From assembly GCA_016187335.1 (NCBI GenBank), contig JACPJW010000001.1, positions 404,170-468,169 on the forward strand: a stretch of 64,000 nucleotides of DNA, written 5' to 3'. The position numbers and the translations under genes were made by a program. The notes beneath the pieces were generated by a model. The model made no database searches. It was not told the DNA's origin and saw only the letters and a program-made list of their open reading frames with translations. This document shows, one piece after another, positions 3,779-56,509 of the stretch. Source of the stretch: Candidatus Aenigmatarchaeota archaeon (GTDB lineage Archaea > Aenigmatarchaeota > Aenigmatarchaeia > GW2011-AR5). Every line of letters begins with the position of its first letter. The stretch's first letter is position 1.

Positions 3779-3804
3779 ATTTTTGATTAAACTTTTTAAA
3801 AAGT

Positions 3805-8402: not shown

Positions 8403-8521
8403 CGCCCCGGGACGGACTCGAACCGTCGACCTTCTGCAATTAGTCAAGAAATCCAAAAACTTGCTTGACTGTTAACAGCCAGACGCTTTAGGCGTCTATC
8501 TACCTGCTGAGCTACCAGGGC
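8403..8521 (-). tRNA. tRNA, anticodon unresolved, with D-arm intron and a second 27-nt hairpin intron
   Basis: Minus-strand 5' GCCCTGG TAGCTCAGCAGGTAG and 3' GACGG-TTCGAGT-CCGTC-CCGGGGC-G; removing a 19-nt hairpin restores D-stem GAGC; two parses give 73-nt exons but neither yields a canonical anticodon loop. Confidence 0.5.
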
Positions 8522-28827: not shown

Positions 28828-28940
28828 GGGCTTGTAGTCTAGAGACCCTTTAGAAAAAGCGTCTACGAAAAGGGTTGGAAAATGGTTATGACGTCGCCTT
28901 CACACGGCGAAGGTCGGCGGTTCGAATCCGCCCGAGCCCA
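28828..28940 (+). tRNA. tRNA-Val (anticodon CAC) with 40-nt D-loop intron
   Basis: GGGCTTG-TA-GTCT-AG [intron 28843-28882] TGGTTA-TGAC-G-TCGCC-TTCACAC-GGCGA-AGGTC-GGCGG-TTCGAAT-CCGCC-CGAGCCC-A; exons sum to 73 nt. Confidence 0.8.
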
Positions 28941-29983: not shown

Positions 29984-29988
29984 TTGGT

Positions 29989-31765: not shown

Positions 31766-32865
31766 TTCATTATTCCGCTCCCGGCAAGCAGTTCATATCG
31801 GGCGAATGGTCTATCCTTGAAATGGGCAACGTAGGCGTCGTTGCGGCCGTGAACAAACGAGTGCACGCTGTTGTTCAGGCTGCTGAAAAAATTACAATAA
31901 GCATAGATGATTTTGCTATCAGCGGTCTGGAAGCGGATTGGAACGGGAAGGAGATTGTTATTTCAGGCGGCCATGAAAAAGAAAAGCTGCAGTTCATCAA
32001 GGAATCCATGGAGACAACGCTGCGTTTCCTGCAGGACAAAGGCATCAAAACAAAGCCGTTCAAAATCCGCAGCTGGGGCGAGCTTTCGCAAATAATTGTG
32101 AATGGCGAAGCCAAGAAAATCGGCTTCGGCTCGTCTGCTTCGGTTACAGTGGCTGTAACCGCGGTGCTTCTGGATTATCACGGGTATGAAGCAAGCAAGG
32201 AAGAAATATACAAATTAGCGACAATAGCTCATTACTTCGCGCAAGGAAAGGTCGGCTCTGCCTTTGATGTTGCCGCATCCACATATGGCGGCGTCTTTGC
32301 TTATTCCCGTTTTGATCCTGGCTGGCTGACAAGCAAAATAGAAAGAGTAGAAAGAATTGCAGACATAGTGAAGGAAAAGTGGCCCGGGTTCTTCGTGGAG
32401 CAGCTCGAAGTCCCTGCGGATTTTTACTTGCTTATTGCTTGGACAGGAGAATCCTTTTCCACGTCCGCAGCCATAAAAAAGATGAACGAGTTCAAGGCGG
32501 CAGATTCCGGGCAGTACCAGGAACTTATTGGAAGGGTTGCAAATACGGCCCGAAGCGTTGCTGATTACTGGAAAAGAAAAGAACGGTCTTCGGTGCTGGA
32601 ATTGCTGCGGAAGAACGAGGATTATTTGCGCGAGCTTGGGGAAAAATCCGGGGTTCCTATAGAAACGCCTGCGCTGAAGCTATTGGCAGATATTGCAAAC
32701 AAGTGCGGCGCTGCCGGGAAGCTCTCTGGCAGCGGCGGCGGAGACTGCGGCATCGGCGTATGCTTTGATGACAGGACGGCTGGAAAAGTTAAGGAAGAAT
32801 GGGAAAAAGCAGGTTTGTACTTTGTTGATGCCACAATAGACTATGAAGGCGTCAAGAAGCATTAG
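31762..32865 (+). CDS. Phosphomevalonate kinase (ERG8/bacterial type)
   Basis: 367 aa; SAPGKQFISGEWSILE, KIGFGSSASVTVAV, KLSGSGGGDCGIGV as in ERG8-type PMK. Confidence 0.8.
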   Translation: MIHYSAPGKQFISGEWSILEMGNVGVVAAVNKRVHAVVQAAEKITISIDDFAISGLEADWNGKEIVISGGHEKEKLQFIKESMETTLRFLQDKGIKTKPFKIRSWGELSQIIVNGEAKKIGFGSSASVTVAVTAVLLDYHGYEASKEEIYKLATIAHYFAQGKVGSAFDVAASTYGGVFAYSRFDPGWLTSKIERVERIADIVKEKWPGFFVEQLEVPADFYLLIAWTGESFSTSAAIKKMNEFKAADSGQYQELIGRVANTARSVADYWKRKERSSVLELLRKNEDYLRELGEKSGVPIETPALKLLADIANKCGAAGKLSGSGGGDCGIGVCFDDRTAGKVKEEWEKAGLYFVDATIDYEGVKKH

Positions 32866-33127: not shown

Positions 33128-34102
33128 ATGAAAGCCTTTGTCGTAAAATCGCCAATAGGCGTCTTCGCCTTCAGCGAAAGCGGCGAACTGGTTTACTACA
33201 GGGTATTCAGCAGCGATCCGCCAAAGGCGCTGCAGGAGTTTGAAAGCGTTATCGACAAAGACTTCATAGACGACCTGAAGGACTATGAATTAGCAGAAGA
33301 CAAGGGCGCGCAAATGATTCTCAGAAAGCACTTCCGGGAATATGCATTGTCTCTGGGCTTTGCAAAAAGCAGCGAGGAACTGAATAAATTTCTTTCTTCT
33401 TTTGCTGCGCTGCTCTCGCGCAAGAGGATGAAGCAGCAGATGAGTCGCGACAGGCTCATTATACAGGCATCCAACGCTTTGGAGGACATAAAGAAGACAG
33501 AAAACCTGCTTTCAGAGCGGTTCAGGGAATGGTACACCCTTCATTATCCCGAGCTGAAGAGCGTTAAAGCAGAAGATGTCATCAAATACGGCCCGCGCGA
33601 AGCGTTCCCCGATTTTAGGGAAAGCGTCGGCGTTGATCTGGCGGAAAACGATTTAGAAATAATCCTGGAGCAGGCAAAGACCCTGAAATCCGTGCAAGAG
33701 CACAGGAAAAGCCTGGAAAGGTATATCCGGAATGCCGCAAGGGAAGTGATGCCGAATTTTTCATCTCTTATTGAACCCTTTTTGGCAGCGCGCTTTCTTT
33801 CACTGGCCGGCTCTCTGGAAAAGCTGGCCAAGATGCCTGCCTCGACGCTGCAGCTGCTTGGCGCAGAGAAGGCCTTGTTCAGGCATCTCCGTGAGAAAGG
33901 AAAGTCGCCGAAATACGGCATCCTGTTTTTGGACACCCGCATCCATACTGCGCCTGACGAGCAAAGGGGCAAAATAGCCCGCGCCATATCGTCAAAACTT
34001 ATGCAGGCCGCGCGCATAGATTTTTACTCAGGCAGGGAAGAGCCGCGCCTGAAAGCAGAGCTTGGTCAAGAAATAAAGAAAATCAATGAGGAAAGGAAAT
34101 GA
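33128..34102 (+). CDS. nop5: Nop5 (Nop56/58) box C/D snoRNP protein
   Basis: 324 aa; NOSIC/Nop domain; immediately upstream of and overlapping fibrillarin. Confidence 0.8.
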   Translation: MKAFVVKSPIGVFAFSESGELVYYRVFSSDPPKALQEFESVIDKDFIDDLKDYELAEDKGAQMILRKHFREYALSLGFAKSSEELNKFLSSFAALLSRKRMKQQMSRDRLIIQASNALEDIKKTENLLSERFREWYTLHYPELKSVKAEDVIKYGPREAFPDFRESVGVDLAENDLEIILEQAKTLKSVQEHRKSLERYIRNAAREVMPNFSSLIEPFLAARFLSLAGSLEKLAKMPASTLQLLGAEKALFRHLREKGKSPKYGILFLDTRIHTAPDEQRGKIARAISSKLMQAARIDFYSGREEPRLKAELGQEIKKINEERK

Positions 34103-34749
34103 AAGAGATTTTTCCCGGCGTGTTCAGGTCAGGCAAAGACTTGCTTACTGTTAATTTAGTTCCCGGAAAGAGGGTCTACGGCGAAAAGCTGCTTGCCAAA
34201 GGCAGGCAGGAATTCAGGGAATGGGTCCCCCAGAGGAGCAAGCTTGCCGCAGCGATAATGAACGGGCTACAGAACATGCCGATGAAGCAGGGCAGCAGGA
34301 TACTCTATCTAGGCGCAGCATCAGGGACAACGCCGTCGCACGTGAGCGATATTGTTGGCCATGACGGAATTGTCTATGCCCTGGAATTCTCTGAACGCCC
34401 GTTCAGGTCACTGATAGAGCTGGCGCGAACCCGCAAGAACATTGCCCCGCTGCTTGCTGACGCGCGGAAGACAGAGGATTATTACTGGGTCGAGGCGTGC
34501 GACATTCTATATTGCGACATCGCGGACCCCCAGCAGACTGAGATTGCTATCCGCAATTTTGAAGAATTCATTGCCGAAGGTTTTCTTTTACTTTCAATAA
34601 AATCACAGAGCATCGACGTTGTCAAGGAGCCGCTGCGCGTTTACGAAGAGGAAAAAAGGAAATTAGAGAAAGCGGGATTTGACGTTCTTGAACTGATCGA
34701 CCTAGAGCCATACGAGGAAAAGCACTGCTTCATCGTAGCGAAGAAATAA
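34099..34749 (+). CDS. flpA: Fibrillarin (rRNA/tRNA 2'-O-methyltransferase)
   Basis: 216 aa; SAM-binding VLYLGAASGTTPSHVSD and conserved fibrillarin N-terminus. Confidence 0.9.
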   Translation: MKEIFPGVFRSGKDLLTVNLVPGKRVYGEKLLAKGRQEFREWVPQRSKLAAAIMNGLQNMPMKQGSRILYLGAASGTTPSHVSDIVGHDGIVYALEFSERPFRSLIELARTRKNIAPLLADARKTEDYYWVEACDILYCDIADPQQTEIAIRNFEEFIAEGFLLLSIKSQSIDVVKEPLRVYEEEKRKLEKAGFDVLELIDLEPYEEKHCFIVAKK

Positions 34750-35903: not shown

Positions 35904-38900
35904 TTACTTTATTTTCTTTATCTCTATACCTATTTTCCTGCCTTCAAAGTCCAGTTTTTCCCCTTCCGCCTTCGCGAACACGACCTTCGCCGCCCCCACT
36001 TCGTTCTTTATTTCTTTTTCCCATTTCTTCAGTTCCCCGGCCCCTTCTATTTTCAAGGCAATTTTGTCCATGACAACAAGCCCTGATTTCTTGCGCATAT
36101 CCTGCACTTTTCTGACAACCTCGCGGAGCAGGGCCTCTTTTTTCAGCTCGTCGGTGAGCAGCGTGTCCAGTTCCAGCTTGCCGCCGTCAAAGGGAACGCC
36201 ATTGTTCGTGTTTGCAAAAACAGCGGCTTTGACATTGCACATATTCTTTATTATTTCTGCAAAAGGCTTGAGATTCTCTTTGCTGTCCACTGTAAGCTTT
36301 GCCAGGGGCCACCTTATTTTTATGTTGCTTTCATGCCTTTGCGAGTTGGATGCTTCGACAAGGTTTTTTACGATATTCATGGCTTTCTCCGCCTTTGCGC
36401 TGATGTATTTTGAATCGTACTTAGGCCAGTCCCTGGTATGCACGGATTCCTTTTCGCCGAGGATTTCGAGGTTTATCTGCTCGGCGAGATACGGCGTTAT
36501 AGGCGCTAAAAGCTGCGATGTTTTTTCTGCTATCTCGTATAAGGTGTAAAAGGCCGCTTCCTTGTCTTTCCCTGAATACGCCGGCCATACGCGGTCCCGG
36601 ATCAGCTTTATGTACCACCTTGAAAAGTCGTTTACTAGGAAATCATGCAGCTCTGTTACGGCCTTGTGGCCGTTGTAGCTGCAGAAATGCTGGGTGCAGT
36701 TCTTTATGGTGGTGTTCAGGCGCGAAAGAATCCATTTGTCCTCTATATTCAGTTTTTTTGGCATTGAACCGCTTGACGCGTCGGTCTGTTTCGGTTTTGT
36801 TGCGTAGGTCTTCACGAAATTAAAGCTGTTTTCTATCACAATAAGAGACCTCGCAATGGCTTCAACGTCCGGCCACTTGAAGTAGAAGTCATCCCACGGC
36901 GCGCTTGACAGCAGATAGAAGCGAAGCACGTCCCGGCCGTATTTTTTTATAATGTCCTCCGGCTCGACAATATTTCCTTTGCTCTTTGACATTTTCACGC
37001 CGTGAGCGTCAAGTATGAAGCCGTGGAAAAGTATGTTCGTGAAGGGCTTCTCATCAAATGTTATTACCGACGTTATCAGCTCGGCGTTCCACCAGCCTCT
37101 GATTTGATCCGGGCCTTCTGTCTGGAAGTCGCTTGGCCACAGTTTCTTGAACAACGCCTTGTTTTTCGGGTAGCCGAGGGATGCCCATCCGGCAAGGCCG
37201 GCGTCAAACCAGACATCAAGGACATCGGCTATCCGTTTCATCGCAGAGCCGCACCTGCATTTCAAAAAAACGTTATCAATGTAAGGCCTGTGCAAATCAC
37301 GGGGTATTTCCGGCAATTCGTCAGCGGAGCCGATGACCTTGACGCTTTCGCATTTCTCGCATATCCATATCGGCAGCGGTATGCCCCAGTAGCGCTGCCT
37401 TGATATAGGCCAGTCGCCGAGGTTTTCAAGCCAGTTGTTGAACCGTTGCTTTGCCCATTCAGGGTACCAGTTCACATTCTTGTTTTCCTTGATGAGCTTG
37501 TCCCTTATCTTCGTCACGCGGAAGAACCACTGCGACACGGATATCAGCAGCAGGGGAGTGCTGCAGCGCCAGCATTGCGGGTAGTCGTGCGTTATCGTTT
37601 CCTCCTTCAGCAGCAGGTCTTTTTCCTTCAGCAGTTCAATTATTTTTTTGTCGCTTGCCTTGACAGGATTTCCAGCAAAAGCACCGCATTTCTCGTCAAA
37701 AGTGCCGTTGATTTTCACCGGAGATATTATGGGCAATTTGTTTTCCAGACCGACTTTGTAGTCCTCCTGTCCGTGCCCGGGGGCGGTGTGGACAAGCCCG
37801 GTGCCGTCTTCCATGCTCACGTACTGCTCTGAAAGCACAACCTTGTGCGCGCCTTTGAGCTGCTGCTGGAATGTAAAAATGTCCCGGAGCGGATGCTCGT
37901 ATTCTGTCCCAGCCAGCTTTTTTCCGGGAAACGTTTCCACAATGCTGAATGGCAGTCCGGCTTTCTTCATAACAGCTTCAAGAAGCGGCTTTGCCAGGAT
38001 AAGAAATTCAGTTCCACCAGAACTTTCCACCATTACCTTGACATATTCGTGCTTCGGATGCGCCATGATGCCTGTATTAGCTGGTAACGTCCACGGCGTT
38101 GTCGTCCATATGACCAGGAACACGTTTTCTTGTCCTTTCACCGGAAACTTAACATAAATAGAAGGGTCCTTGGCTTTGCTGTATTCTATTTCGTTGTACG
38201 CAACGGCTGTTTCGCAATTATGTGTCAAGAAGCCGTTAGTTATAAAGTTGTGATGAGTTTCAACTGCTATATCACATACTTTCCGTTTCCCCTTATATTT
38301 TATAGAATTTATTTCATCCCAAATAAATCCGTCTCTGAGGTCTTTTGCAGCATTTTTTAACCATGCATCGAATGCAGGGGTATATTTGGCAGCACGAACT
38401 GACTTAGACTTGCCATAAACCACATGCCTTACATAAAGTTCAGGTAAGTTAAGCATAATTGCGATTTTGCTGCAAGGGATCTTAGAATGTCTTAGTGATA
38501 AGATCCTACCTTTCAATTTTCTGTATTGTTTCTCAAGTGATTTTTTGTACAGAAGATAGCCCAAAACATGCGAAGCCCTGATTTTTCTGTATTTACAGTA
38601 CTCGTATCCTAAATACCGTATGAATTTAATGAGGTTGTAATCGTTGCAATCTATACTGATAGTGGTCTTCGATTTTTCTATTTTATTAACAATATTTCTT
38701 TCTGTTTTTATTTCTCCTGTCGATACCCCAAACTTATTGATAAGCGCGCATATCTGTTTTGCAAATTCCATCCCGTTTTCTTCTAGATGTCTATTTTTTG
38801 TAAGGTAAAGCCTCAGGCATTCAAATCCCTTTCCATATTTTCTGGGGCTTATTATCTGGAGTTCGCTTCCGAAGTAAGATGCCAAAAATTCCCTTGTTAA

Positions 38901-40421
38901 TTTTTTATTGGACTTTATCCATTTTGGCACAAATGTCTTTGTTTCCGTCTTTTTTCCTATAGGACAGCCTAGCGTTATAAGCAAAACAGCCAAAGACAAA
39001 GAATAACATCTCATGGATGTTGTAAATCCCTTTATTGCTCTGCCATTTACGACAGATTTAGTTGGCACGGTTGAAATATCCGAATGGCTAAAGCCAAGAA
39101 TCTTTAGGTCTTTTTGGATTTCTTTTAAATCTTCCTCTTTTCCGCAGAAATCTATGCCAAATACCGGGAATTTTCTGTTTTTAGATGTACGTACAACAAT
39201 AGATCCATCACCAAAAATATGACCTGCCAATCTGGCTAAAATAAATGATTTTGTAGATTTACTGTGAAGAGGTATCAGTTCTTTATCTTTCAATTCATTT
39301 ATTATAGAATCGTAGCGCGTAAACGTATTTACTTTTAAAATTTTTGCTACCCATGATTTTGAAACTCTTATTTTGAAGGCGTTTTGTATTTCTTTAATAA
39401 TTTTAGTATATGAATAGTTATTTTTTCTAAGTTCGGCAACAAAGTTCTTAATTTTAATTTTCGAATGACTTGTAAGGTCGTTAAATTTATGCAGATCTCT
39501 GAAAACTATATTTTCTAAGTTCTGCAAAGTAAACATTACATTATTCTCATTTACAAGAGCTTTGCCTGTTTCCGTAATTTCCGGCAGTCTGCTTTCCACA
39601 TTATTATATACGGCCACTTTGGTTCCTATTCTGAGCTTAGAAAGAGTCATCCATCCATCTTGCGTCCAGAACGGATGATCACTCGAAGCGATTAGTTTCT
39701 TTCCTGTTAGCGTTTTTACAAGAAATACATTATCTTCCAATTCCACATAGCCCAGAGGTTTTGCCGTAGTTAGAAGTTTAGAATTAGTATCAACAGCTAC
39801 AACCGTGTTGTGTTTCCAGCAGCCTTTCAGTTCTCCTATTTTTCTTGTTCCCCCTTCAACAAGAATAGTAGAATTAGGATCAACGCATCTCGGGCATACA
39901 TGCACCGGATAAAGACCCTTGTAGAGCAGTCCCTTGTCGTAAGCGGTCTTGAACGTGTGCCACGCGCCCTCTATGTACTCGTTGTTGTACGTTATGTAAG
40001 GGTTGTCCCAGTCCATCCACACGCCAAGATTCAGGAACTGGTTATTCATGACAGAAATGAACTGGCTGACGAACGCCCTGCATTCCTTGTTGAATCTCTC
40101 GACGCCTAGCCTTTCTATATCAGCCTTTGATTTTATCTCCAGTTTTTGCTCGACCTTGTTTTCTATCGGCAGCCCGTGGGTGTCGTAGCCCGGCTGGTCC
40201 CATACGTCGAAGCCGGACATGCGCCAGAATCGGATGTAGCTATCCTTCAATATTTTGTTCCAGGCAGTGCCTATGTGTATGTAGCCCGTGGCGTAAGGCG
40301 GGCCGTCAAGGAAGTAGAATTTCTTCTTTCCTTTTCTTTTTGTCTTGGCCTTCTGGTAAATGCCGTCTTTTGCCCAGAACTCGGCGATTTCTTCTTCTTT
40401 TTTCTTGCGGCTTTCTATCAT
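35904..40421 (-). CDS. ileS: Isoleucyl-tRNA synthetase interrupted by an intein
   Basis: 1505 aa; HIGH (YIHIGT), KMSKS (KMSKSKGN), WPISRQRYWGIPLP; 557-aa insertion between CPR and CETA of the zinc-binding region. Confidence 0.9.
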   Translation of the reverse strand: MIESRKKKEEEIAEFWAKDGIYQKAKTKRKGKKKFYFLDGPPYATGYIHIGTAWNKILKDSYIRFWRMSGFDVWDQPGYDTHGLPIENKVEQKLEIKSKADIERLGVERFNKECRAFVSQFISVMNNQFLNLGVWMDWDNPYITYNNEYIEGAWHTFKTAYDKGLLYKGLYPVHVCPRCVDPNSTILVEGGTRKIGELKGCWKHNTVVAVDTNSKLLTTAKPLGYVELEDNVFLVKTLTGKKLIASSDHPFWTQDGWMTLSKLRIGTKVAVYNNVESRLPEITETGKALVNENNVMFTLQNLENIVFRDLHKFNDLTSHSKIKIKNFVAELRKNNYSYTKIIKEIQNAFKIRVSKSWVAKILKVNTFTRYDSIINELKDKELIPLHSKSTKSFILARLAGHIFGDGSIVVRTSKNRKFPVFGIDFCGKEEDLKEIQKDLKILGFSHSDISTVPTKSVVNGRAIKGFTTSMRCYSLSLAVLLITLGCPIGKKTETKTFVPKWIKSNKKLTREFLASYFGSELQIISPRKYGKGFECLRLYLTKNRHLEENGMEFAKQICALINKFGVSTGEIKTERNIVNKIEKSKTTISIDCNDYNLIKFIRYLGYEYCKYRKIRASHVLGYLLYKKSLEKQYRKLKGRILSLRHSKIPCSKIAIMLNLPELYVRHVVYGKSKSVRAAKYTPAFDAWLKNAAKDLRDGFIWDEINSIKYKGKRKVCDIAVETHHNFITNGFLTHNCETAVAYNEIEYSKAKDPSIYVKFPVKGQENVFLVIWTTTPWTLPANTGIMAHPKHEYVKVMVESSGGTEFLILAKPLLEAVMKKAGLPFSIVETFPGKKLAGTEYEHPLRDIFTFQQQLKGAHKVVLSEQYVSMEDGTGLVHTAPGHGQEDYKVGLENKLPIISPVKINGTFDEKCGAFAGNPVKASDKKIIELLKEKDLLLKEETITHDYPQCWRCSTPLLLISVSQWFFRVTKIRDKLIKENKNVNWYPEWAKQRFNNWLENLGDWPISRQRYWGIPLPIWICEKCESVKVIGSADELPEIPRDLHRPYIDNVFLKCRCGSAMKRIADVLDVWFDAGLAGWASLGYPKNKALFKKLWPSDFQTEGPDQIRGWWNAELITSVITFDEKPFTNILFHGFILDAHGVKMSKSKGNIVEPEDIIKKYGRDVLRFYLLSSAPWDDFYFKWPDVEAIARSLIVIENSFNFVKTYATKPKQTDASSGSMPKKLNIEDKWILSRLNTTIKNCTQHFCSYNGHKAVTELHDFLVNDFSRWYIKLIRDRVWPAYSGKDKEAAFYTLYEIAEKTSQLLAPITPYLAEQINLEILGEKESVHTRDWPKYDSKYISAKAEKAMNIVKNLVEASNSQRHESNIKIRWPLAKLTVDSKENLKPFAEIIKNMCNVKAAVFANTNNGVPFDGGKLELDTLLTDELKKEALLREVVRKVQDMRKKSGLVVMDKIALKIEGAGELKKWEKEIKNEVGAAKVVFAKAEGEKLDFEGRKIGIEIKKIK
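38217..39887 (-). mobile_element. Intein with LAGLIDADG homing-endonuclease domain inside ileS
   Basis: Starts CVDPNSTILVEGG, contains ILARLAGHIFGDGSI, ends FLTHN followed by Cys; A/T-rich relative to exteins. Confidence 0.7.
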
Positions 40422-40600
40422 CGTTGAACACCGGAAAATACCATAACGGAAAGAAAAGGGAAATCCCAGGCATAACCTTTCTTTTCCGCCTTAATTACCC
40501 TTTTAAACCTAACTCTGTTGCTTAATTTTTTAAGCATTGAATGGTACTCTTATTAATCAAAGCCAGTGAGGTCATGTAGTCAGTTCTCGATGGTGCTTTC

Positions 40601-41038
40601 ATGACAGAATGCGAAATGTGCGGCTGGAACGGCGATTTGGTCAGGGCCAACGTCGAGGGCACGATCCTGAGGGTCTGCAAAAAATGCTCCGTCCTGGGCG
40701 CAAAAATGGAAGAAGCGAAAACGGAGCAGAAGCCGCTGAGTTTAGCCAGAAAGATGGAAATCTCCGAATTCGTGCCGGATTTTGCCGAGAAAATAAGGCA
40801 CGCCAGGGAGTCAGCAGGAATGAACAAAAGCGACCTGGCGCGCAGGATTGGCGTGAGCCCGTCATTGCTGTCGCGCATCGAGAAGGGCATGCGCCCTACC
40901 GATGCTTTGGCAAGAAAGCTGGAAAAAGAGCTGAAGATAGGCTTGTTCTACACGGACACATTGACCACGGTAAAGGCGGAAAGAACGCCTGAAGTAACCC
41001 TAGGCGACGTCGTTGAGCTGAGGATAAGGAAGAAGTAG
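40601..41038 (+). CDS. mbf1: Archaeal multiprotein bridging factor 1 (zinc ribbon plus HTH)
   Basis: 145 aa; N-terminal CEMCG...CKKC ribbon and HTH MNKSDLARRIGVSPSLLSRIEKG. Confidence 0.75.
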   Translation: MTECEMCGWNGDLVRANVEGTILRVCKKCSVLGAKMEEAKTEQKPLSLARKMEISEFVPDFAEKIRHARESAGMNKSDLARRIGVSPSLLSRIEKGMRPTDALARKLEKELKIGLFYTDTLTTVKAERTPEVTLGDVVELRIRKK

Positions 41039-41195
41039 TTTTTTCTAAAGCGGACATTCCATTTCCGATGGTTATCCCACGTTTTCTTATTTAAGTCTTG
41101 GCAAATTATTAGCAAAAGCAAACTGACTGATACACTTTGTACGTCAGTCAGGAATGGCCATTAAGAATCGGCATTGCTGGTAATGACTTAATCAT

Positions 41196-41330
41196 GGCCG
41201 CCATGGTGTAGAAAGCCCTTTTTGACGCTTCGCTTATCAAAAAGCGCTTGCGGAAATAATTAGGGTTTGCAAATTGGTAGCATCGGAGCCTGTGGAGCTC
41301 CTTGGCTGGGTTCGAATCCCAGTGGCGGCC
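41196..41330 (+). tRNA. tRNA-His (anticodon GUG) with encoded G-1 and 63-nt D-loop intron
   Basis: G-1 plus GCCGCCA, D-stem GTGT/GCAT, D-loop AG [intron 41212-41274] TGGTA, anticodon arm GGAGC-CTGTGGA-GCTCC, T-arm CTGGG-TTCGAAT-CCCAG, acceptor TGGCGGC, discriminator C. Confidence 0.8.
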
Positions 41331-41360
41331 CTAAATTATTGTTATGATTAAGAAAATAAT

Positions 41361-42248
41361 TCAATAACATAAATTCAAGCCAAGATGTCTGTCCAACTGT
41401 TCTTTTGCCATTCTTTGTTCTCTGTTGTTAAGATGCCAATATCGAAATGATTCTCTACGACAAAGATCCGTTCCTTCGTAGCATTCCAATAAATGCGGAT
41501 ACCCTGCGCCTATTATTCTCGGCTTCCCACCGTATTGGGAAGCCACGATTATTGGCGTGTCAAGGCTGTTTGGCGACAAGTTTGCAGGATAGAAAGTGAT
41601 GTGCATTTTTGCCGGGTCAAATTCGAAATAGGGCACTATGGTAAATCCATTTCTCTTGTAATCAAGCTCTACAGGCCTTTGTTGTGCTCTTTTCCCCCGT
41701 CGCCTCAATCCTTCGACAAGATTTCTGTAAAACTTGGAAGTTTTTACAGGCGATGCCAACAGTGGCATGTTTGCACTCTTAACATATCCGCTTGGTGTAT
41801 CATAATTTGGTTCGATTTCACCAAAGCGGAAGGAATACCAGAAGAAGTGCTTACCGGTAGTTTCTACTGCAATGCCTCTTATGTGAGGAGTTTCATAAGA
41901 TGATGGCGGAAAGCCAAATTCATCCCTTCCTGAAATATCTAGTCGGGGCCAATGAGATGCCGGCTTAACAGAAATAAAACATGGGACATTCAATCCATCT
42001 ATATTGACGTCTCTGACCAATATAGGAACATCATTTCTTGTCCACAGGCGAAATTCCTTCTCATCTTTATCCCCACGTCTGTTAATGAATACATGCCACT
42101 TAACTGTTGTCAGGCCTGCGCTGAATTCATCTTCTGTAAAAATTCGCCTTCCTTCAAAACCAAGCTGCCACCAGAATAAGTACCTTTTGTCTATTATCTT
42201 TTCCCCATCTAGTTTGTCAACTAGGCTTCTGTCAATCATATATAACAA
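41361..42248 (-). CDS. Hypothetical protein (A/T-rich gene beside tRNA-His)
   Basis: 295 aa; no recognised motif; no tyrosine-recombinase signature seen. Confidence 0.45.
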   Translation of the reverse strand: MLYMIDRSLVDKLDGEKIIDKRYLFWWQLGFEGRRIFTEDEFSAGLTTVKWHVFINRRGDKDEKEFRLWTRNDVPILVRDVNIDGLNVPCFISVKPASHWPRLDISGRDEFGFPPSSYETPHIRGIAVETTGKHFFWYSFRFGEIEPNYDTPSGYVKSANMPLLASPVKTSKFYRNLVEGLRRRGKRAQQRPVELDYKRNGFTIVPYFEFDPAKMHITFYPANLSPNSLDTPIIVASQYGGKPRIIGAGYPHLLECYEGTDLCRRESFRYWHLNNREQRMAKEQLDRHLGLNLCY

Positions 42249-42300
42249 GAATCAGGAAAATATTTAGCTGTAAAATAAACCACAGAAAATAAAATCAGCC

Positions 42301-42576
42301 CTATCCAGTCCTCTTTATCACGTGCCAGCCGAACTCGGTTTTCACGGGCTGGGAAATCTGGTCCTTTTCCAGAGCGAATGCAGCCATCTCGAACGTCCTG
42401 ACCATCATGCCCCTTCCAAAAGAACCAAGGTCTCCGCCATGCTTTCTTGACGGGCATAAAGAATGCTGCTGCGCAAGCTCCGCGAAGCTCTCGCCTTTCT
42501 TGATCTTGTCAAGGATAAGCTTTACTTCCTGCTCAGTTTTCACAAGGATGTGCGAGCATCGCACTTGGGATGGCAT
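42301..42576 (-). CDS. Parvulin-type peptidyl-prolyl cis-trans isomerase
   Basis: 91 aa; CSHILVKT, GGDLGSFGRGMMV, TEFGWHVIKR. Confidence 0.8.
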   Translation of the reverse strand: MPSQVRCSHILVKTEQEVKLILDKIKKGESFAELAQQHSLCPSRKHGGDLGSFGRGMMVRTFEMAAFALEKDQISQPVKTEFGWHVIKRTG

Positions 42577-42696
42577 CGTTCAATTTACCCACAAAAACTT
42601 TATATATTTCTTAGTAGGTTAATACAGACGGTGACAGAATGACCGGCTCAAGAAGGGATCTACTTCACTCGGCGCAGGAAGCGCGGTTCAGTTAGT

Positions 42697-42870
42697 TTAC
42701 TTAATTCTCAAAACAGGTTTTCTGTCACCATTGATGACCGCGGAAGGATATTCATCCCGGCAGAGATACGAAGGTCTTTCGGAATGACCGCAGGCGAGAC
42801 GCTGTTCCTTTACCCGATTACTTCTGAGAATGCTGTTTTGATTAAGAGAGGTGTTGGAAATGCTAAATGA
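42697..42870 (+). CDS. AbrB/SpoVT (MazE-like) swapped-hairpin small protein, start codon unclear
   Basis: Hand translation ...SVTIDDRGRIFIPAEIRRSFGMTAGETLFLYPITSENAVLIKRG...; no in-frame ATG/GTG/TTG upstream of the domain before a TGA at about 42640. Confidence 0.35.
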   Translation, partial: LLNSQNRFSVTIDDRGRIFIPAEIRRSFGMTAGETLFLYPITSENAVLIKRGVGNAK

Positions 42871-43495
42871 TTGTCTACTTTTCATATTCGATCTTGATGG
42901 AACGCTGTATTCTAAGGATAGGGAAAAAAATTACTACAGAGAGCTTCAAAAATTGAGGAAAAGATTCATTGCTAAAACATTAGGCGTACCATTGAAAGAA
43001 GCGGATAGAATTCTTGCAGGTCTAATCAGCAATTATGGTGAAAATATAGATATCACCTTAGAAACCGAATATGGTGTACCAAAGCCGAGATACTATGCAG
43101 AAACTGCAGGTTCTGTTCCTGTTGAAGACATAATTTCTTATGACCCAAAACTACGTTGCATCTTATGTCAAATAGACTCTACGAAATCTGTTTTGACAAA
43201 TGCACCTAGTGTCTGGGCAGAAAAAGCGATAGGACAGCTAGGAATTGCAGACCAGTTTGGCTTGGTAATGACATGTGATGACGGCATCGTAAAGCCGCAG
43301 GAAGAAGCCTTTCTAAGGGTATGCAGAGGCGCCGCTGTGGAACCAAAAAGAGCCATTGCCGTAGGAGATAACCCTCAACGGGACTTATACGTTCCAAGAA
43401 AGCTCGGGATGAAAACTGTTTCTGTGGGTGTTTTTGACACAAATGCAGATTTCTTCATAGATTCCATTTACGGGTTGCCAGAAATTTTGAGGTGA
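42851..43495 (+). CDS. HAD-superfamily hydrolase
   Basis: 214 aa; motif I FIFDLDGTLYS, motif IV AVGDNPQRD; A/T-rich codons. Confidence 0.7.
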   Translation: MLEMLNDCLLFIFDLDGTLYSKDREKNYYRELQKLRKRFIAKTLGVPLKEADRILAGLISNYGENIDITLETEYGVPKPRYYAETAGSVPVEDIISYDPKLRCILCQIDSTKSVLTNAPSVWAEKAIGQLGIADQFGLVMTCDDGIVKPQEEAFLRVCRGAAVEPKRAIAVGDNPQRDLYVPRKLGMKTVSVGVFDTNADFFIDSIYGLPEILR

Positions 43496-43504
43496 TAGTC
43501 ATGG

Positions 43505-44254
43505 GTGAATTACTTCATCGGCGAGAAAGTTGAAGGCAGTATCTTTGTGCTAGATGACGCAAAGCCTTTTGGGATAAAGTTTCCAGATGATTACGAAAAA
43601 CTGCTCAGAAAAAATAACGGCACTCTGAGAGTCATTGATGCAGAAGAGCTTACTTTTTACTTGATGTATTTTATGGAAACATCAACTGGGCAGAAGCCTG
43701 TTACCCTTATAGGAAAGGGCGGTGCATTGACAGGAGTTCTTCTGAGGCGCAGAGGATTCTCAAAACAAATGAGTTTTGCGGATGTTGAAAGGACTTACAG
43801 CAGCGATGGAAATGGTACGAAGATAAACTACCGTATTATTTCCTGCGATGATGAACTATACCCTCGCATAGCTGACGATGTAATTGCAAGCGGGACGACT
43901 TTGAATTTTCTGATGAGAGAACTTGGCCTGAGGGAGTCTGATGTATATACATTGGTCCTGAGCGGAGATACGAACAGCGGCTGGAGAGATGCAACAGGCA
44001 GTACACTGGCGAATTCAAGGAATGTTTACGCAGCTGCTGTTGCACTACGTCCTAACGCAAAGCCTGCAATATTTTCTACACGATATCTTTTGTACGGCGT
44101 CAAAAACAATCCAAGATACAGGGATTATTTGGCAAAATACGTCGGCGGGGAGCAGAATGTTCGTAGTATTCTGCCAATGCTCAGGGAAATTGATTTGTCA
44201 CCTTTTGATTTGCTGTACAAAGAACCGCGAGAATTTCTCCGGAAATATGGATAG
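43505..44254 (+). CDS. Phosphoribosyltransferase-like protein
   Basis: 249 aa; PRPP-binding-like motif IADDVIASGTTL preceded by acidic residues; N-terminal domain unassigned. Confidence 0.5.
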   Translation: MNYFIGEKVEGSIFVLDDAKPFGIKFPDDYEKLLRKNNGTLRVIDAEELTFYLMYFMETSTGQKPVTLIGKGGALTGVLLRRRGFSKQMSFADVERTYSSDGNGTKINYRIISCDDELYPRIADDVIASGTTLNFLMRELGLRESDVYTLVLSGDTNSGWRDATGSTLANSRNVYAAAVALRPNAKPAIFSTRYLLYGVKNNPRYRDYLAKYVGGEQNVRSILPMLREIDLSPFDLLYKEPREFLRKYG

Positions 44255-44261
44255 TGATTCT

Positions 44262-44798
44262 ATGAAGATTCAGGTTGGAGTTATAGGTCCTGCGGAAGAA
44301 GAGTATTCTTCTGACAAAAAAATGCGCGAAAAAATTGAGATAACGGCAGAGAGATTAGGCGAACTTGTCGCAGAAAGCGGCGCTGTTTTGTTTACAGGCG
44401 GCATGAGCGGCGTAATGGAAGCTGCATCGCGGGGTGCAAAAAAGAAAGGAGGTTTGACCATCGGCACGCCCGGACGAGACAGAGGAATTTCAAACAAATA
44501 CGTGGATGTGGAAATATGCACGCCTATAGACATAGGCGACTTTTTGTTTGCCGGGACGTGGAGCTGTGACGCAATTATTGTTGTTCCCGGAAGCGCAGGA
44601 ACACTGGCGGAAATGTGCCTGGCTTACAGGGCTAAAAAACCTATAATCGTATTGAGAGGATTTGATGAAATATACGAAAAATGGATAGATAACTACATTG
44701 ACGAAGGAAAGTTCGTAAAAATCTTAGGGACAGAAACTCCAGAAGAAGCAGTTGAAATGGCTATTAAAATCGCCAAATTAAATCTAAATAAAAAGTGA
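44262..44798 (+). CDS. LOG/SLOG-family (TIGR00725-like) Rossmann protein
   Basis: Start taken at MKIQVGVIG; GGMSGVMEAASRGAKKKGGLTIG and PGSAGTLAE motifs typical of LOG-like proteins. Confidence 0.65.
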   Translation: MKIQVGVIGPAEEEYSSDKKMREKIEITAERLGELVAESGAVLFTGGMSGVMEAASRGAKKKGGLTIGTPGRDRGISNKYVDVEICTPIDIGDFLFAGTWSCDAIIVVPGSAGTLAEMCLAYRAKKPIIVLRGFDEIYEKWIDNYIDEGKFVKILGTETPEEAVEMAIKIAKLNLNKK

Positions 44799-46069
44799 TT
44801 ATCATGCCCAAATTCCAGACGCCACGAGGCACCAGGGACTTTTTGCCTGAGAAGATGCTCAGAAGGCAGTTCGTTCTGGATACGCTGCGCGCTGTCTTTG
44901 AGAAATGGGGCTACGAGCCTTTGGAAACGCCTGCATTCGAGGACTGGGCCTTGCTGTCGGCGAAGCAGGGCGGCGGAGAAGAGATCAAGAAAGAGATATT
45001 TTATTTCAAGGACAAGGGCGACAGAGAAGTTGGCTTGCGTTTTGACCTGACCGTGCCGCTTGCCCGCGTTGTTGCAGGCAATCCCCAGCTGCCTAAGCCT
45101 TTCAAAAGATACGCCATCGGCAGGGTGTGGCGCTACGACGAGCCGCAGGCCGGCAGGTACAGGGAATTCTGGCAGGCTGACGTTGATATTATAGGCTCGC
45201 CCGAGAGCGACGCTGACGCCGAAATAATTGCTATAGCCTGCGAAGCCCTGCTGGTTCTAGGTTTCAAGGAATTCCAGATACGGCTGAACAACAGGAAGAT
45301 TCTGGAATCCTTTGTGAAGTCTCTGGGCATCAAGGACCCTATGGCTGTTTTCCGCGCCGTTGACAAGCTGGAAAAGACAGGAGAGGAGCAGGTCAGAAAA
45401 GAGCTGAAAAAAACAGTCAGCAGCGCCCAGGCAGACGAAATAATGAAATTCCTGAAGATTAGGGAAACGGAAGAATTGCGTTCCTTGGCAAAAAGCGACG
45501 AGATGAGGGAAGCCATAGCGGAATTGGAATCGGTCCTTAACTCAATGAAGGGCTACGGCTATTCTGCTTTTGTTCGCAGCGACATGTCCCTGGTCCGCGG
45601 CCTTGAATATTATACAGGGCCGGTTTTCGAAATAAAGGTGGGCAAAGCCAGGCTAAGCATAGGCGGCGGCGGCAGGTATGACAAGCTCATAGAATTGTTC
45701 GGCGGCAAGCCAACGCCTGCCACGGGCATTTCCTTCGGCGTTGAAAGGCTTGTGGATATCATGGAAGCGGAGAAAATGCTGGACACGCCGAAAACCATTG
45801 CAAGGGTGTTTATTGCGAGCGCCGGCGACGTCCGTCCGGCTGTCCTGAAAGCCGCCAAGGAGCTGAGAAGGCTTGGCATCAATTGCGAATACGACGTCAT
45901 GCAGCGCGACTTGGGCAAGCAGCTGCAGTACGTCAACGCCAGAAGCGTTCCTTTCGTGCTGATTATCGGCGAGAAAGAGGTTAAGGAAGGCGTTTATCGG
46001 CTAAGGGACATGAAAAGCGGCGAAGAGCAGTTGTTGAAAAGCTTGGAAGACGTGAAAAAGTGGGGTTAA
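44795..46069 (+). CDS. hisS: Histidyl-tRNA synthetase
   Basis: 424 aa; class II motifs and HisRS signatures (GLRFDLTVPLARV, RYDEPQAGRYREFWQ, GGGGRYD). Confidence 0.9.
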   Translation: MIIMPKFQTPRGTRDFLPEKMLRRQFVLDTLRAVFEKWGYEPLETPAFEDWALLSAKQGGGEEIKKEIFYFKDKGDREVGLRFDLTVPLARVVAGNPQLPKPFKRYAIGRVWRYDEPQAGRYREFWQADVDIIGSPESDADAEIIAIACEALLVLGFKEFQIRLNNRKILESFVKSLGIKDPMAVFRAVDKLEKTGEEQVRKELKKTVSSAQADEIMKFLKIRETEELRSLAKSDEMREAIAELESVLNSMKGYGYSAFVRSDMSLVRGLEYYTGPVFEIKVGKARLSIGGGGRYDKLIELFGGKPTPATGISFGVERLVDIMEAEKMLDTPKTIARVFIASAGDVRPAVLKAAKELRRLGINCEYDVMQRDLGKQLQYVNARSVPFVLIIGEKEVKEGVYRLRDMKSGEEQLLKSLEDVKKWG

Positions 46070-46129
46070 AGGAAAAAATTTGCAGGCCAGAAAGAGTCTC
46101 TCCTGTATCAAAGCCCTGTATCGCTGTTT

Positions 46130-46261
46130 TTATGACTTAACCAAGATGTACGAGCACGCCATGCAGATGAATTCTTCATCCGCGCTGTAAGTCCTGTACG
46201 AGCCGCATCTCGGGCAGCCTTTTCTTGTTTTTGCTTCTGCAAGTCTTGTCTTTGCTTTCAT
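46130..46261 (-). CDS. Small zinc-ribbon protein (43 aa, not in ORF track)
   Basis: Hand translation MKAKTRLAEAKTRKGCPRCGSYRTYSADEEFICMACSYILVKS with CPRC...CMAC pairs. Confidence 0.3.
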   Translation of the reverse strand: MKAKTRLAEAKTRKGCPRCGSYRTYSADEEFICMACSYILVKS

Positions 46262-46533
46262 TTTCGTCAGCCCACCTGTTCCCACAATATCGGCATCAGA
46301 ATATAAAGCTTCTAGCGGCGGAAACTATCTTTTACCCTACAATAATGCTTTTATGCGTAGTCTCTGGCAAGGGGTGAAAGCTTTAAAAAGGTTCCAGCCA
46401 AGTATAAAATGCTCTTACTTCTACGGTGTTTTAGCCAATGACAGTAAGGTTAGACAAAAATATGCAAAGCGGAAGAGCAGAACCGATTTCCGGCTTTTGG
46501 TGAGCTTCCGCCTTAGAAAAAGGTGAAAATATT

Positions 46534-48327
46534 ATGGCAAAGGAAAAAATAGTGCCTGATACGTCAGTGATTATTTCAGGCATCTTAACGGATCTGATAG
46601 CCAAAGGCGAGCTGTCGGACGCGGAAATAATCATGCCGGAGTTCGTTGTGGAAGAGCTTCGCGCCCAGTCGTCAAAAGGCAGGGAAATAGGCTTCAAGGG
46701 CCTGGAAGAACTGAAGAAATTGCGGGAGCTCAGCGGCGAGAAAATCAAGCTTGTCAAAATAGGCCGCAGGCAGACGATGGAGGAAATACAATTGGCAAAA
46801 TACGGCAGGATAGACGCTCTAATCATTGATATTGCCAGGGAATACGATGCCGTTCTTTACACTGCTGACTATGTCCAGTTCCTCGTGTGCGATGCCGAGG
46901 GCATCAAGACGCGCTACTTCAAGCCTTACGAAAAAAAAATAGAAACAAAGCTTTCCTCGATGCTGACCAAGGATACAATGTCCCTGCATCTGAAGGAAGG
47001 GACGGTGCCGATGGCGAAGCGAGGCCTGCCCGGTAAGTTTTCTTTAGTCAAGCTGAGGGAGGAGCTGCTGACAGAGGACGAACTGGAAGAGATTATCAAG
47101 GAGGTCATGGACGCGGCCAGGTATGAAGAGGACACGTTCATAGAAGTGGGCGGCCACGTGGCTTCTGTCGTGCAGATGGGCGACATGAGGATAGCGATAG
47201 CACGTCCTCCTTTCTCCGACGGCGTAGAGATTACAGTGGTCAGGCCAATAATCAAGCTGACGCTGGAAGACTACAAGCTTTCTGAAAAGCTCAAAGAGCG
47301 CCTTGCAAAGCGCGCTGACGGAATTCTCATAGCCGGCCCGCCCGGCTCAGGAAAAAGCACTTTTGCCGCCTCCCTTGCGGAGTTTTATGAAAGACAGGGC
47401 AAGATTGTGAAGACAATGGAATCACCAAGGGACTTGCAGGTAGGCCCGGAGATAACGCAGTACAGCAAATTGAAGGGCTCTTTCGAGAATACAGCGGACA
47501 TGCTCCTGCTTGTGAGACCGGACTACACTGTTTTCGACGAGGTGCGGAAAACCGAGGACTTTCTTATATTCAGCGACATGCGCCTTGCGGGAATAGGCAT
47601 GATCGGCGTTGTCCATGCCACGGAGCCCGTTGACGCCGTGCAGCGCTTCATCGGCAGGATTGAACTGGGCATGGTGCCTCACATCATTGACACAATCATA
47701 TACATCAAGGACGGCGTCATCAAAAATGTTTACGTATTGTCTTTGGTCGTGAGGACGCCGACAGGCATGACAGAAGCTGACCTGGCAAGGCCTGTTGTTG
47801 AAGTCAGGGATTTTGAAACAGGAACAATGGAATACGAAATATACACCTACGGCGAGGAGAACGTAATCATACCGGTGAAAGAGAAAAAAGAATCAGCGCT
47901 GCAAAGGCTTGCCAAAAAACACATATTCGAGGAAATCAAGCGCTTCGACAGGGACGCGCAGGTGGAATTCATGAGCGACGAGAAGATCCTCGTCAAGGTG
48001 GACAACGAAATTATCCCAAGAATCATCGGCAAGGAAGGCGTGACTATAAAGCATCTGGAAGAAAAGCTGGGATTGCACATTGACATCCTGCCGAAGGTGG
48101 AAACATTCGGAAAGGAGACGAAGTTTGACCAGGAAGAGAGCGGCGCGTACATGCAGTTCGTTTTCAGCGAGAAGCAGGGCAGGATTGTCAACTTCTACGC
48201 AGGAAAGGATTATTTGTTCTCGGCAACAATAGGCAAGAACGGCCGCATCAAGGTCAGCAAGGATTCCGATATAGGCAAGGAAGCCATGAAGGCGCTGGCC
48301 AAAGGGACCCTGAAGACGTTTGTATAA
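46534..48327 (+). CDS. PIN-domain/PilT-family ATPase with C-terminal KH domain
   Basis: 597 aa; N-terminal PIN-like region, Walker A GPPGSGKST, KH motif IIGKEGVTIKHLEEKLG. Confidence 0.8.
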   Translation: MAKEKIVPDTSVIISGILTDLIAKGELSDAEIIMPEFVVEELRAQSSKGREIGFKGLEELKKLRELSGEKIKLVKIGRRQTMEEIQLAKYGRIDALIIDIAREYDAVLYTADYVQFLVCDAEGIKTRYFKPYEKKIETKLSSMLTKDTMSLHLKEGTVPMAKRGLPGKFSLVKLREELLTEDELEEIIKEVMDAARYEEDTFIEVGGHVASVVQMGDMRIAIARPPFSDGVEITVVRPIIKLTLEDYKLSEKLKERLAKRADGILIAGPPGSGKSTFAASLAEFYERQGKIVKTMESPRDLQVGPEITQYSKLKGSFENTADMLLLVRPDYTVFDEVRKTEDFLIFSDMRLAGIGMIGVVHATEPVDAVQRFIGRIELGMVPHIIDTIIYIKDGVIKNVYVLSLVVRTPTGMTEADLARPVVEVRDFETGTMEYEIYTYGEENVIIPVKEKKESALQRLAKKHIFEEIKRFDRDAQVEFMSDEKILVKVDNEIIPRIIGKEGVTIKHLEEKLGLHIDILPKVETFGKETKFDQEESGAYMQFVFSEKQGRIVNFYAGKDYLFSATIGKNGRIKVSKDSDIGKEAMKALAKGTLKTFV

Positions 48328-56404: not shown

Positions 56405-56509
56405 GCCGGCGTCGCATAATCTGGTGGTGCACTGATTGCATGCGAAGCAAGTGTATGTCTCGAAAACCAGCGGGCTCTGCCCATGCAGGTTCAAATCCTG
56501 CCGCCGGCG
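56405..56509 (+). tRNA. tRNA, anticodon unresolved, probably intron-containing
   Basis: Acceptor GCCGGCG/CGCCGGC with discriminator G; T-arm GCAGG-TTCAAAT-CCTGC; internal 73 nt could not be folded into a unique cloverleaf. Confidence 0.5.

Follow-up and report, generated by a model that had tools for sequence, protein, structure and literature searches.

The window analysed here, a stretch of 64,000 nucleotides of contig JACPJW010000001.1 from a Candidatus Aenigmarchaeota metagenome-assembled genome, carries two adjacent forward-strand genes, one for a predicted and very divergent phosphoribosyltransferase (PRTase)-fold protein, here called ORF2 (ORF, open reading frame), and one for a protein of the TIGR00725/SLOG cluster 4 family (SLOG4). 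Among named genomes this pair is confined to DPANN archaea and to bacteria of the candidate phyla radiation (CPR), and its probable role is a histidine-linked one, as yet uncharacterised, and not generic nucleotide turnover. Five independent contexts point to the link with histidine: the gene hisS for histidyl-tRNA synthetase (HisRS), tRNA-His, hisI-hisG, hisD, and the regulator HisR together with its operator. In the window itself the arrangement is best explained as one co-directional unit that encodes an AbrB-like regulator, a HAD phosphatase, the PRTase-like protein, the SLOG4 protein and HisRS. The last four genes of this unit are the following.

42851 (GTG) or 42860 (ATG) to 43495, forward strand: HAD-IA phosphatase, accessory member of the module (PF00702, PF13419, four HAD motifs)
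43505 (GTG) to 44254, forward strand: ORF2, predicted divergent type I PRTase-fold protein of the 'prtA' family, 249 aa, without a Pfam or NCBIfam model
44262 (ATG) to 44798, forward strand: TIGR00725/SLOG cluster 4 protein of a DPANN/CPR subclade, 178 aa (PF18306)
44795 to 46069, forward strand: hisS, histidine--tRNA ligase (TIGR00442, 421 bits against a cut-off of 286.75)

An initial annotation of this DNA had described three adjacent genes at 42851-44798 on the forward strand, joined by short or overlapping junctions, and the reading frames are indeed present there. The junctions are short (9 nt between the HAD gene and ORF2, 7 nt between ORF2 and the SLOG gene); an overlap would need a start at ATG 43989 or ATG 44247. 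The GTG start of ORF2 at 43505 has the sequence GAGGTGA located 10 nt upstream, and the SLOG gene begins at ATG 44262, where the deposited 178-aa protein (P0002) also starts. For ORF2, NCBI lists a hypothetical protein of identical sequence under the locus tag HYW26_02685. The stop of the SLOG gene overlaps the GTG start of hisS by 4 nt, while the alternative hisS start at ATG 44804 leaves a 6-nt gap; the hisS product is a full synthetase, including the anticodon-binding domain. The unit therefore exceeds the three genes originally described, with the AbrB-like gene upstream and hisS downstream.

The conservation of the pair was assessed on loci of SLOG relatives drawn from look-ups of the encoding contigs, from GTDB species genomes and from metagenomes, with ORFs scored by our own profiles. 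Clustering the 93 subclade loci at 90% identity leaves 49 clusters, and 31 of these are flanked by 900 nt or more on either side. An adjacent PRTase-like gene on the same strand is found in 24 of these 31 dereplicated loci. Two architectures dominate: an archaeal type, prtA-SLOG4-hisS, in 9 clusters (3 of them with a HAD-IA gene), and a CPR type, in which a gene first labelled TrpR-like is followed by SLOG4 and a second PRTase-like gene, prtB, in 14 clusters (one with a Cof-type HAD-IIB gene between SLOG4 and prtB). One further cluster has prtB alone, and a few short contigs show the order prtB-SLOG4-hisS. All named members of the subclade are CPR or DPANN, with Saccharibacteria, Staskawicz-, Shapiro-, Falkow- and Parcubacteria and Patescibacteria as the CPR hosts and Aenigm-, Pace- and Woesearchaeota as the DPANN hosts. 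The pairing belongs to this subclade: in a genome scan of more distant TIGR00725 loci (L022-L086), a PRTase neighbour was found in 0 of 65.

The PRTase partners have diverged to less than 30% identity, or to similarity visible by profile only, while the pair persists in archaea and bacteria. BLAST aligns prtA and prtB through the phosphoribosyl pyrophosphate (PRPP) loop only; profile comparison with hhalign gives homology over the whole length (probability 98.7%, 205 columns). Reverse look-ups that started from the divergent PRTases P0140 and P0152 recovered the PRTase-SLOG4-hisS arrangement again, and the contig of P0131 ends before its neighbours. The order within the unit is not fixed. It is HAD-PRTase-SLOG in the window and PRTase-HAD-SLOG in L001 and L002, although L002 keeps the flanking ppiC and PIN-ATPase genes of the window. 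Because the order shuffles, the HAD gene is optional and the pair is kept, the core of the module is the PRTase-like gene with SLOG4. The initial annotation would have abandoned the idea of a unit had the genes turned out to have unrelated neighbours in other genomes; the neighbourhood is conserved, and the genes stand as a unit.

The contexts of the pair are where the link with histidine appears. In each of the 9 archaeal-type clusters, and likewise in L168 and L169, hisS comes after the pair, at boundaries that overlap or nearly abut, and this adjacency holds even where the PRTases are less than 30% identical. The PRTase gene of the Pacearchaeota locus L004 has a tRNA-His gene directly upstream, so that the pair is located between tRNA-His and hisS. 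Loci L156 and L157, which lack a PRTase-like gene, present tRNA-His, hisS, SLOG4, hisI (phosphoribosyl-AMP cyclohydrolase) and a long-form hisG. The tRNA-His genes of L004 and L156 both encode G-1. In the Pacearchaeota loci L013, L125 and L126, the succession is a GNAT gene, an M20 hydrolase, a SLOG4 paralogue, SLOG4, a small kinase-like gene, hisD and a HAD gene. The initial annotation had framed the three genes as a possible route to making or turning over a modified nucleotide or base. Such production or turnover by the module is possible, and the contexts listed here, with the HisR evidence below, were the strongest functional clue, which this frame had missed. As a separate observation, L156 encodes two full-length HisRS within 4 kb (2703-3992; 6661-8208, reverse strand), both above the TIGR00442 cut-off; one belongs to the tRNA-His-hisS-SLOG4-hisI-hisG operon and the other, on the opposite strand, has an insertion.

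In the CPR operons the link would be regulatory. Their first gene, the one labelled TrpR-like, is a member of the YerC/YecD family (75-76 bits with TIGR02531, cut-off 42.2), and its product matches PDB entry 3g1c with E=4e-15. The yerC product of B. subtilis and 3g1c are HisR, a histidine-dependent repressor with the operator consensus cacTTTAnnnnnnTAAAgtg (PMC9413887). A HisR-type palindrome, TTTA-N6-TAAA and usually aCTTTA-N6-TAAAGtg, is present in 24 of 27 dereplicated CPR loci, at most about 60 nt upstream of the hisR-like start and mostly between the -10 box and the start. The form CTTTA-N6-TAAAG occurs at 36 sites in 156.6 kb, compared with about 0.4 expected from base composition. In L003 the box lies directly 3' of a TTGACA-16-TATACT promoter. 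The CPR relatives thus carry both a HisR-family regulator gene and an operator matching cacTTTAnnnnnnTAAAgtg, and histidine-dependent binding is putative. With a HisR homologue as first gene and a HisR-type box before that same gene, the CPR module is predicted to be a histidine-repressed, autoregulated operon. No HisR box was found in the archaeal window.

Individual boxes are exemplified by L003 1497-1512, L005 4693-4708, L011 4282 and 4368, and by 20 other CPR loci. Tandem boxes occur in L011, L089, L105, L092 and L118; a second box lies between hisR and SLOG4 in L100, L105, L106 and L108, and boxes are also seen just after prtB (L011 6427, L092 2525 and L118 2570). In L003 a terminator-like hairpin with a T-run, without a match to an Rfam family, lies between SLOG4 and prtB (2404-2424); it may be an internal terminator or an attenuator within the CPR unit.

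Comparison with characterised histidine systems shows both the likeness and its limits. The first gene of the CPR operons is a HisR homologue, preceded by a box that fits the operator consensus, and the archaeal arrangement resembles the HisG-HisZ system in pairing a putatively PRPP-using protein with a HisRS-family gene. The published HisR regulons consulted, however, comprise genes of histidine biosynthesis and transport (PMC9413887), not SLOG or PRTase genes. Unlike HisG, ORF2 is predicted to have the type I fold and, unlike in the HisZ system, the adjacent HisRS is a full synthetase.

The SLOG protein presents the motifs GGMSGVMEAA and PGSAGTLAE. It scores 118 bits with PF18306 (SLOG cluster 4; cut-off 26.3, E=3.7e-34) and 101 bits with TIGR00725, slightly under the cut-off of 106.9. 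The deposited protein and a close relative carry the names 'LOG family protein' and 'TIGR00725 family protein'. Within the subclade, the motifs TGGxxG, GTPGRxRG and PGxxGTxxE are invariant. With the subclade profile, members score at least 156 bits and other TIGR00725 proteins at most 125. Second, divergent SLOG cluster 4 paralogues adjoin the subclade SLOG4 gene at two PRTase-less loci (L126 3311-3937; L148 3197-3757, reverse strand).

The initial annotation had assigned this protein to the LOG family, whose enzymes cleave nucleotide N-glycosidic bonds. Membership of the SLOG/LOG superfamily stands, and assignment as a LOG enzyme does not. SLOG4 shares with LOG, the cytokinin riboside 5'-monophosphate phosphoribohydrolase, and with PpnN-type nucleotide nucleosidases the Rossmann-like SLOG superfamily fold, the glycine-rich phosphate loops and a PG[GS]xGTxxE motif with the final Glu; its PGSAGTLAE corresponds to the PGGxGTxxE of LOG, and G113, T114 and E117 are invariant in the subclade. 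This motif does not discriminate LOG enzymes, because the non-catalytic molybdenum cofactor (Moco) carrier proteins also keep it. The catalytic residues of CgLOG are Arg99, within an MHxRK segment, and Glu122 (PMC4979012). In a HMMER alignment, the RK pair of 5zi9 aligns with G92-D93 of SLOG4; G92 is invariant, and the window protein has neither Arg nor Lys across residues 88-104. SLOG4 thus differs from LOG in having a Gly for the catalytic Arg and its own invariant GTPGRxRG, and it scores far under the LOG cut-offs (NF058542, 26.7 against 300; TIGR00730, 32.7 against 96.35; PF03641, 16.8 against 27).

The nearest PDB entries are TM1055 (1rcu), 6y01 and 2iz5, with profile E-values from 4e-24 to 3e-22. 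The Moco carriers among them (Chlamydomonas 2iz5 and Rippkaea 6y01) and TM1055 appear by sequence to share with SLOG4 the family-level fold and the length. Moco carrier proteins are non-enzymatic and bind the ligand without transforming it (PMC7470044), and they are the only characterised members of TIGR00725/SLOG cluster 4. Unlike them, the SLOG4 of the window belongs to a separate subclade, and the PRTase partner and the histidine contexts are limited to that subclade.

The middle protein, ORF2, has no assignment at the Pfam or NCBIfam cut-offs. A word-indexed homology search returned nothing but ORF2 itself, and a single-sequence phmmer search against the PDB was uninformative. An exhaustive HMMER scan of 1.84 billion representatives recovered just 34 relatives. 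P0138 (4104 aa, 10 matched stretches) was rejected as a cadherin and a spurious repeat match. The family alignment has nearly invariant GxGG, RxY and DD[IV][IV]ASGxT motifs and the family-specific invariant residues S153, R161, P187, S191 and R193. The PRPP-loop motif of ORF2 is IADDVIASGTT, of which D125, S129, G130 and T132 are kept in at least 90% of 31 family members, and the CPR family prtB has the equivalent motif VVDDVISSGxT. A regular-expression search for further PRPP loops across the window found ORF2 as its sole match.

The structural model is informative when the family alignment is provided: AlphaFold then reaches a pLDDT of 92.9 and a pTM of 0.91, whereas the single-sequence AF2 model (pLDDT 35) was discarded. 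The modelled protein has the five-stranded parallel sheet with flanking helices of the PRTase core, and a Foldseek search supports the PRTase fold, with a TM-score normalised by query length of about 0.4. The family profile matches HGXPRT (PDB 1hgx) with E=3e-6. ORF2 itself scores 11.4 bits with PF00156, below the gathering cut-off of 26.3, which places it in the superfamily and not in the curated Pfam family; 25 of 31 relatives match PF00156 weakly (best E=4.5e-9). Weak matches to PF24390 (PRTase-CE) are seen in nine family members, and ORF2 has a weak SUKH/SMI1 match below cut-off (E=0.0017). The AlphaFold model, the Foldseek result, the 1hgx profile match, the weak PF00156 matches and the loop motif together argue for a divergent PRTase fold. 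The PRPP-binding-like motif reported in the initial annotation is accordingly well placed, as the protein is PRTase-like both by its loop motif and by its predicted fold. We regard ORF2 as a PRTase-fold protein that has diverged far, with its 5-phosphoribosyl/PRPP loop intact and with putative transferase activity.

The type I core is shared with XGPRT and HGXPRT (PDB codes 5vog, 4z1o, 1vdm and 1a95), as are the acidic pair, the SGxT 5-phosphoribosyl loop and a GxGG loop at the position of the pyrophosphate (PPi) loop; identity is 10-19%. Unlike the small purine PRTases, ORF2 appears to lack the Asp of the 'DTG' general base, where its sequence has Ala as in APRT-type motifs, and it adds an N-terminal element of about 60 residues and a family-specific C-terminal region of about 100 residues.

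The first gene of the originally described trio encodes, as claimed from its FDLDGTL motif, a HAD phosphatase. PF00702 (50.3 bits, E=5e-13) and PF13419 (42.1 bits, E=1.3e-10) both score above cut-off, and all four motifs are present (FDLDGTL, VLTNAP, KP and GDNPQRD). From its sequence it is a competent-looking HAD-IA enzyme. The nearest NCBIfam model is TIGR01993, the Sdt1-type pyrimidine 5'-nucleotidase, at 102.4 bits and thus below the cut-off of 142.9. Its place as one of three module genes was not sustained. A HAD gene is present in 4 of the 31 dereplicated loci only, and the subfamilies differ: the window HAD matches that of L002 over the C-terminal 77 residues only, and the HAD of L018 is a HAD-IIB. 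There are three distinct HAD types within PRTase-SLOG4 operons and a fourth beside hisD in the PRTase-less locus L126. This repeated, independent recruitment of non-orthologous HADs argues that a phosphatase step is useful and non-essential to the module. The HAD of L126 is a candidate histidinol-phosphate phosphatase; orthology of the window HAD with it was considered and was not supported (BLASTP E=0.18).

Upstream of the HAD gene, the unit begins with an unusual split gene and its leader.

42599 to 42606, no strand assigned: archaeal TATA-box-like element TTTATATA between the divergent ppiC gene and the operon, a putative promoter
42639 to 42695, forward strand: leader ORF MTGSRRDLLHSAQEARFS and stop, ATG to TAG, with one conserved His codon; equivalents in L002, L001 and L117
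42694 to 42870, forward strand: AbrB/SpoVT-like domain ORF in the +1 frame relative to the leader (PF04014, E=1e-4); its stop overlaps the HAD start

The TATA-like element is conserved as CTTTAAATA in L002. The split AbrB-like gene is present in four independent assemblies (window 42639-42870, L002 1650-1889, L001 3190-3557 and L117 440-833), and a domain HMM derived from these loci scores each of them with an E-value of about 1e-24. In all four, a short ORF of 18-30 codons with a normal start codon and a TAG end precedes the AbrB domain. The domain itself is without a canonical in-frame start in three of the four loci (in the window there is no ATG, GTG or TTG), and L117 has two candidates. 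The leader-AbrB junction reads TTY-NNY-TAG-Y in all four assemblies, and the codon after the skipped T is always AGY. A single His codon (CAC), placed 7-8 codons ahead of the TAG, is common to the leader peptides, which otherwise diverge.

Over about 50 nt of the leader (CAAGAAGGGRTCTACTTCAC...GCGCAGGAAGCGCG...), the window (42650-42696) and L002 (1680-1726) have about 90% identity, and the AbrB coding part further downstream is visibly less conserved in the same alignment. The substitutions between the two at the 3' end of the leader are synonymous in the leader frame only. The 14-mer GCGCAGGAAGCGCG occurs once in the window and in L002, and none of the other 168 loci has it. The conservation of the leader could reflect overlapping reading frames or an element acting at the RNA or DNA level. 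From these four sequences, the AbrB-like gene looks like a candidate for programmed +1 frameshifting or for a regulatory leader peptide, and the leader possibly senses His-tRNA. A riboswitch (ZTP, PRPP or others) was also considered: no Rfam family reached its gathering score in 19 CPR loci and the window, and near window 42400-43000 the riboswitch-type matches were at chance level only.

These observations can be brought together in a histidine-responsive, PRPP-dependent N-ribosyl module. We favour this interpretation tentatively, with doubt slightly outweighing belief. Under histidine scarcity the unit would be expressed together with HisRS. The PRTase-like enzyme would act on an N-ribosidic bond to a nitrogen heterocycle of the imidazole type, either forming it with PRPP or breaking it with PPi; the candidate acceptors are a purine (at N9), 5-aminoimidazole-4-carboxamide (AICA), and a histidine-pathway or histidine-derived imidazole. 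Its SLOG4 partner would bind the 5-phosphoribosyl compound and either hydrolyse the N-glycosidic bond or hold and sequester the ribotide, and the HAD, where present, would strip the 5'-phosphate.

Several points weigh against this interpretation. The canonical LOG catalytic Arg is missing in SLOG4, and with non-catalytic carriers as nearest characterised relatives, SLOG4 may not be an enzyme at all. The links to hisI-hisG and to hisD come from one dereplicated locus each. HisR-family paralogues with other effectors exist (HisR2), and the adjacency of hisS among DPANN lineages could be partly inherited synteny. The hairpin of L003 suggests that the two CPR genes are perhaps not cotranscribed in every case. 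DPANN and CPR organisms are, moreover, generally regarded as amino-acid auxotrophs, which makes a role inside histidine biosynthesis hard to place.

A bolder form of the proposal, which we consider a long shot, is that the pair is a histidine-starvation-induced couple of enzymes, of which one would form and the other break an imidazole N-ribosidic bond. In one version it would replace, by non-orthologous proteins, the early nucleotide-linked steps of histidine synthesis (of the HisG/HisE type, or in handling the AICA ribotide, AICAR). In the other, histidine or a precursor of it, obtained from the host, would pass through a phosphoribosyl 'trap and release' cycle. If true, CPR and DPANN symbionts would manage histidine by chemistry that is so far undescribed. 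In Aenigmarchaeota, control may run through the His-codon leader and a +1 frameshift in the AbrB-like regulator.

The N-ribosyl module has to be weighed against other explanations of the same genes. Salvage of nucleotides or nucleobases is unlikely. In it, the PRTase would act on a standard base, SLOG4 would be a PpnN/LOG-type nucleoside monophosphate nucleosidase that releases ribose 5-phosphate, and the HAD would be a 5'-nucleotidase, with the purpose of rebalancing nucleotide pools in organisms without de novo synthesis. The best structural matches are indeed purine PRTases (XGPRT and HGXPRT), the HAD is nearest to the pyrimidine 5'-nucleotidase model TIGR01993, the PGxxGTxxE motif is retained, and the restriction of the module to CPR and DPANN among named genomes fits auxotrophic hosts. 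Salvage would, however, leave the HisR operator and the hisS, tRNA-His, hisI-hisG and hisD contexts unexplained; the LOG catalytic Arg is absent, a HAD is found in few loci, and a forward and a reverse enzyme on one nucleotide would make a futile cycle. Nor does it account for the roughly 100 family-specific residues of the PRTase, reflected in the modest query-normalised TM-score. Rather improbable, too, is a role as accessory to tRNA-His or HisRS, in which the pair would act on or bind tRNA-His, or regulate HisRS, instead of handling a small metabolite. Such a role would suit the hisS junctions, which overlap or leave a few bases between the genes in loci of Aenigmarchaeota, Pacearchaeota and Woesearchaeota, the position of the pair between tRNA-His and hisS in L004, and the tRNA-His before hisS-SLOG4 in L156; both folds also include nucleic-acid binders, namely DprA for SLOG, and PyrR and ComFC for PRTases. 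Most CPR loci, on the other hand, have no hisS or tRNA-His nearby, known HisR regulons are made of biosynthesis and transport genes, and the intact PRPP-type loop suggests a small phosphoribosyl ligand. As G-1 is encoded in both tRNA-His genes, no added-nucleotide step is obviously needed.

Two further explanations fare worse. That these are unrelated housekeeping genes held together by inherited order in small genomes is highly improbable: the surroundings are ordinary housekeeping genes, and the window and L002 have the ppiC and PIN-ATPase flanks in common, yet the pair persists across archaea and bacteria through the divergence of its PRTases, the internal order of the unit is shuffled between unchanged flanks, and differing HAD subfamilies have been inserted into it. 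Many SLOG/PRTase associations have been proposed to act in nucleotide signalling or in conflicts with viruses, and we give this explanation hardly any credence here. SLOG and PRTase genes are known to pair in the YpsA clade and in conflict systems, and the nine PRTase-CE matches would agree with it, but the search with PADLOC gave no match except a weak one to PsyrA for the SLOG protein (E=0.003), no relatives were found in viral contigs, the context with its overlapping hisS junction is housekeeping, and the unit has no effector, transmembrane or nuclease partner.

The pairing of a SLOG protein with a PRTase is already known from the YpsA clade, where the coupling was inferred from gene neighbourhood (Brzozowski et al. 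2019), and SLOG cluster 4 is already a named Pfam family. The window pair resembles the YpsA pairs in coupling a SLOG protein with a PRTase-domain protein. It differs from them in its SLOG cluster (4), in its PRTase family, in its DPANN and CPR hosts, and in its tie to histidine and not to NAD or ADP-ribose. Literature searched on TIGR00725 and PF18306 held no prior description of the PRTase-SLOG4 pair; the founding SLOG cluster 4 paper lay outside the scope of that search. That cluster was reportedly defined by Burroughs et al. in 2015. Undescribed in the sources consulted are a PRTase family beyond Pfam and NCBIfam, a SLOG4 subclade distinct from the Moco carriers, and an unexpected connection with histidine by way of HisRS, tRNA-His, his genes and the HisR operator.

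CPR bacteria and DPANN archaea account for a large part of microbial diversity, and their metabolism is inferred almost wholly from annotated genes. Genes common to the two groups and absent elsewhere are rare clues to the life of ultra-small symbionts. Should histidine-pathway or imidazole compounds prove to be the substrates of the pair, it would be a new piece of amino-acid or nucleotide acquisition and the first TIGR00725 function besides Moco carriage. The analysis supplies testable reagents, namely three small soluble proteins and a defined operator.

The module lies in a housekeeping context and not in a mobile island. Upstream genes include a mevalonate-pathway cluster, Nop5/fibrillarin, a DHH protein, an apparently intein-bearing isoleucyl-tRNA synthetase (IleRS), aMBF1 and PpiC; downstream are a PIN-ATPase, an arginase-family gene and a VIT1-family gene. 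The mevalonate-pathway-type run (28994-32865) consists of a diphosphomevalonate decarboxylase-like gene and two GHMP kinases, and Nop5 and fibrillarin occupy 33128-34749. The IleRS ORF (35904-40421, reverse strand, 1505 aa) has an apparent intein-like insertion of about 480 residues, which starts as CVDPNSTILVEGG directly after a CPR tripeptide and ends as THHNFITNGFLTHN directly before CETAVAY; a drop in GC content to 0.37 at 38001-40000 coincides with it.

No tRNA genes were found within window 40000-47000. Rfam tRNA matches lie elsewhere in the window at 8403-8521, 28872-28940 and 56405-56509, and the length of two of them (105-119 nt) suggests intron-containing archaeal tRNA genes. Among the relatives, a run of five tRNA-Arg genes with five anticodons was seen in L005 (7342-7835; also in L113), about 1 kb downstream of the CPR module and after an acetyltransferase gene, and a glmS ribozyme in L021 (3151-3310).

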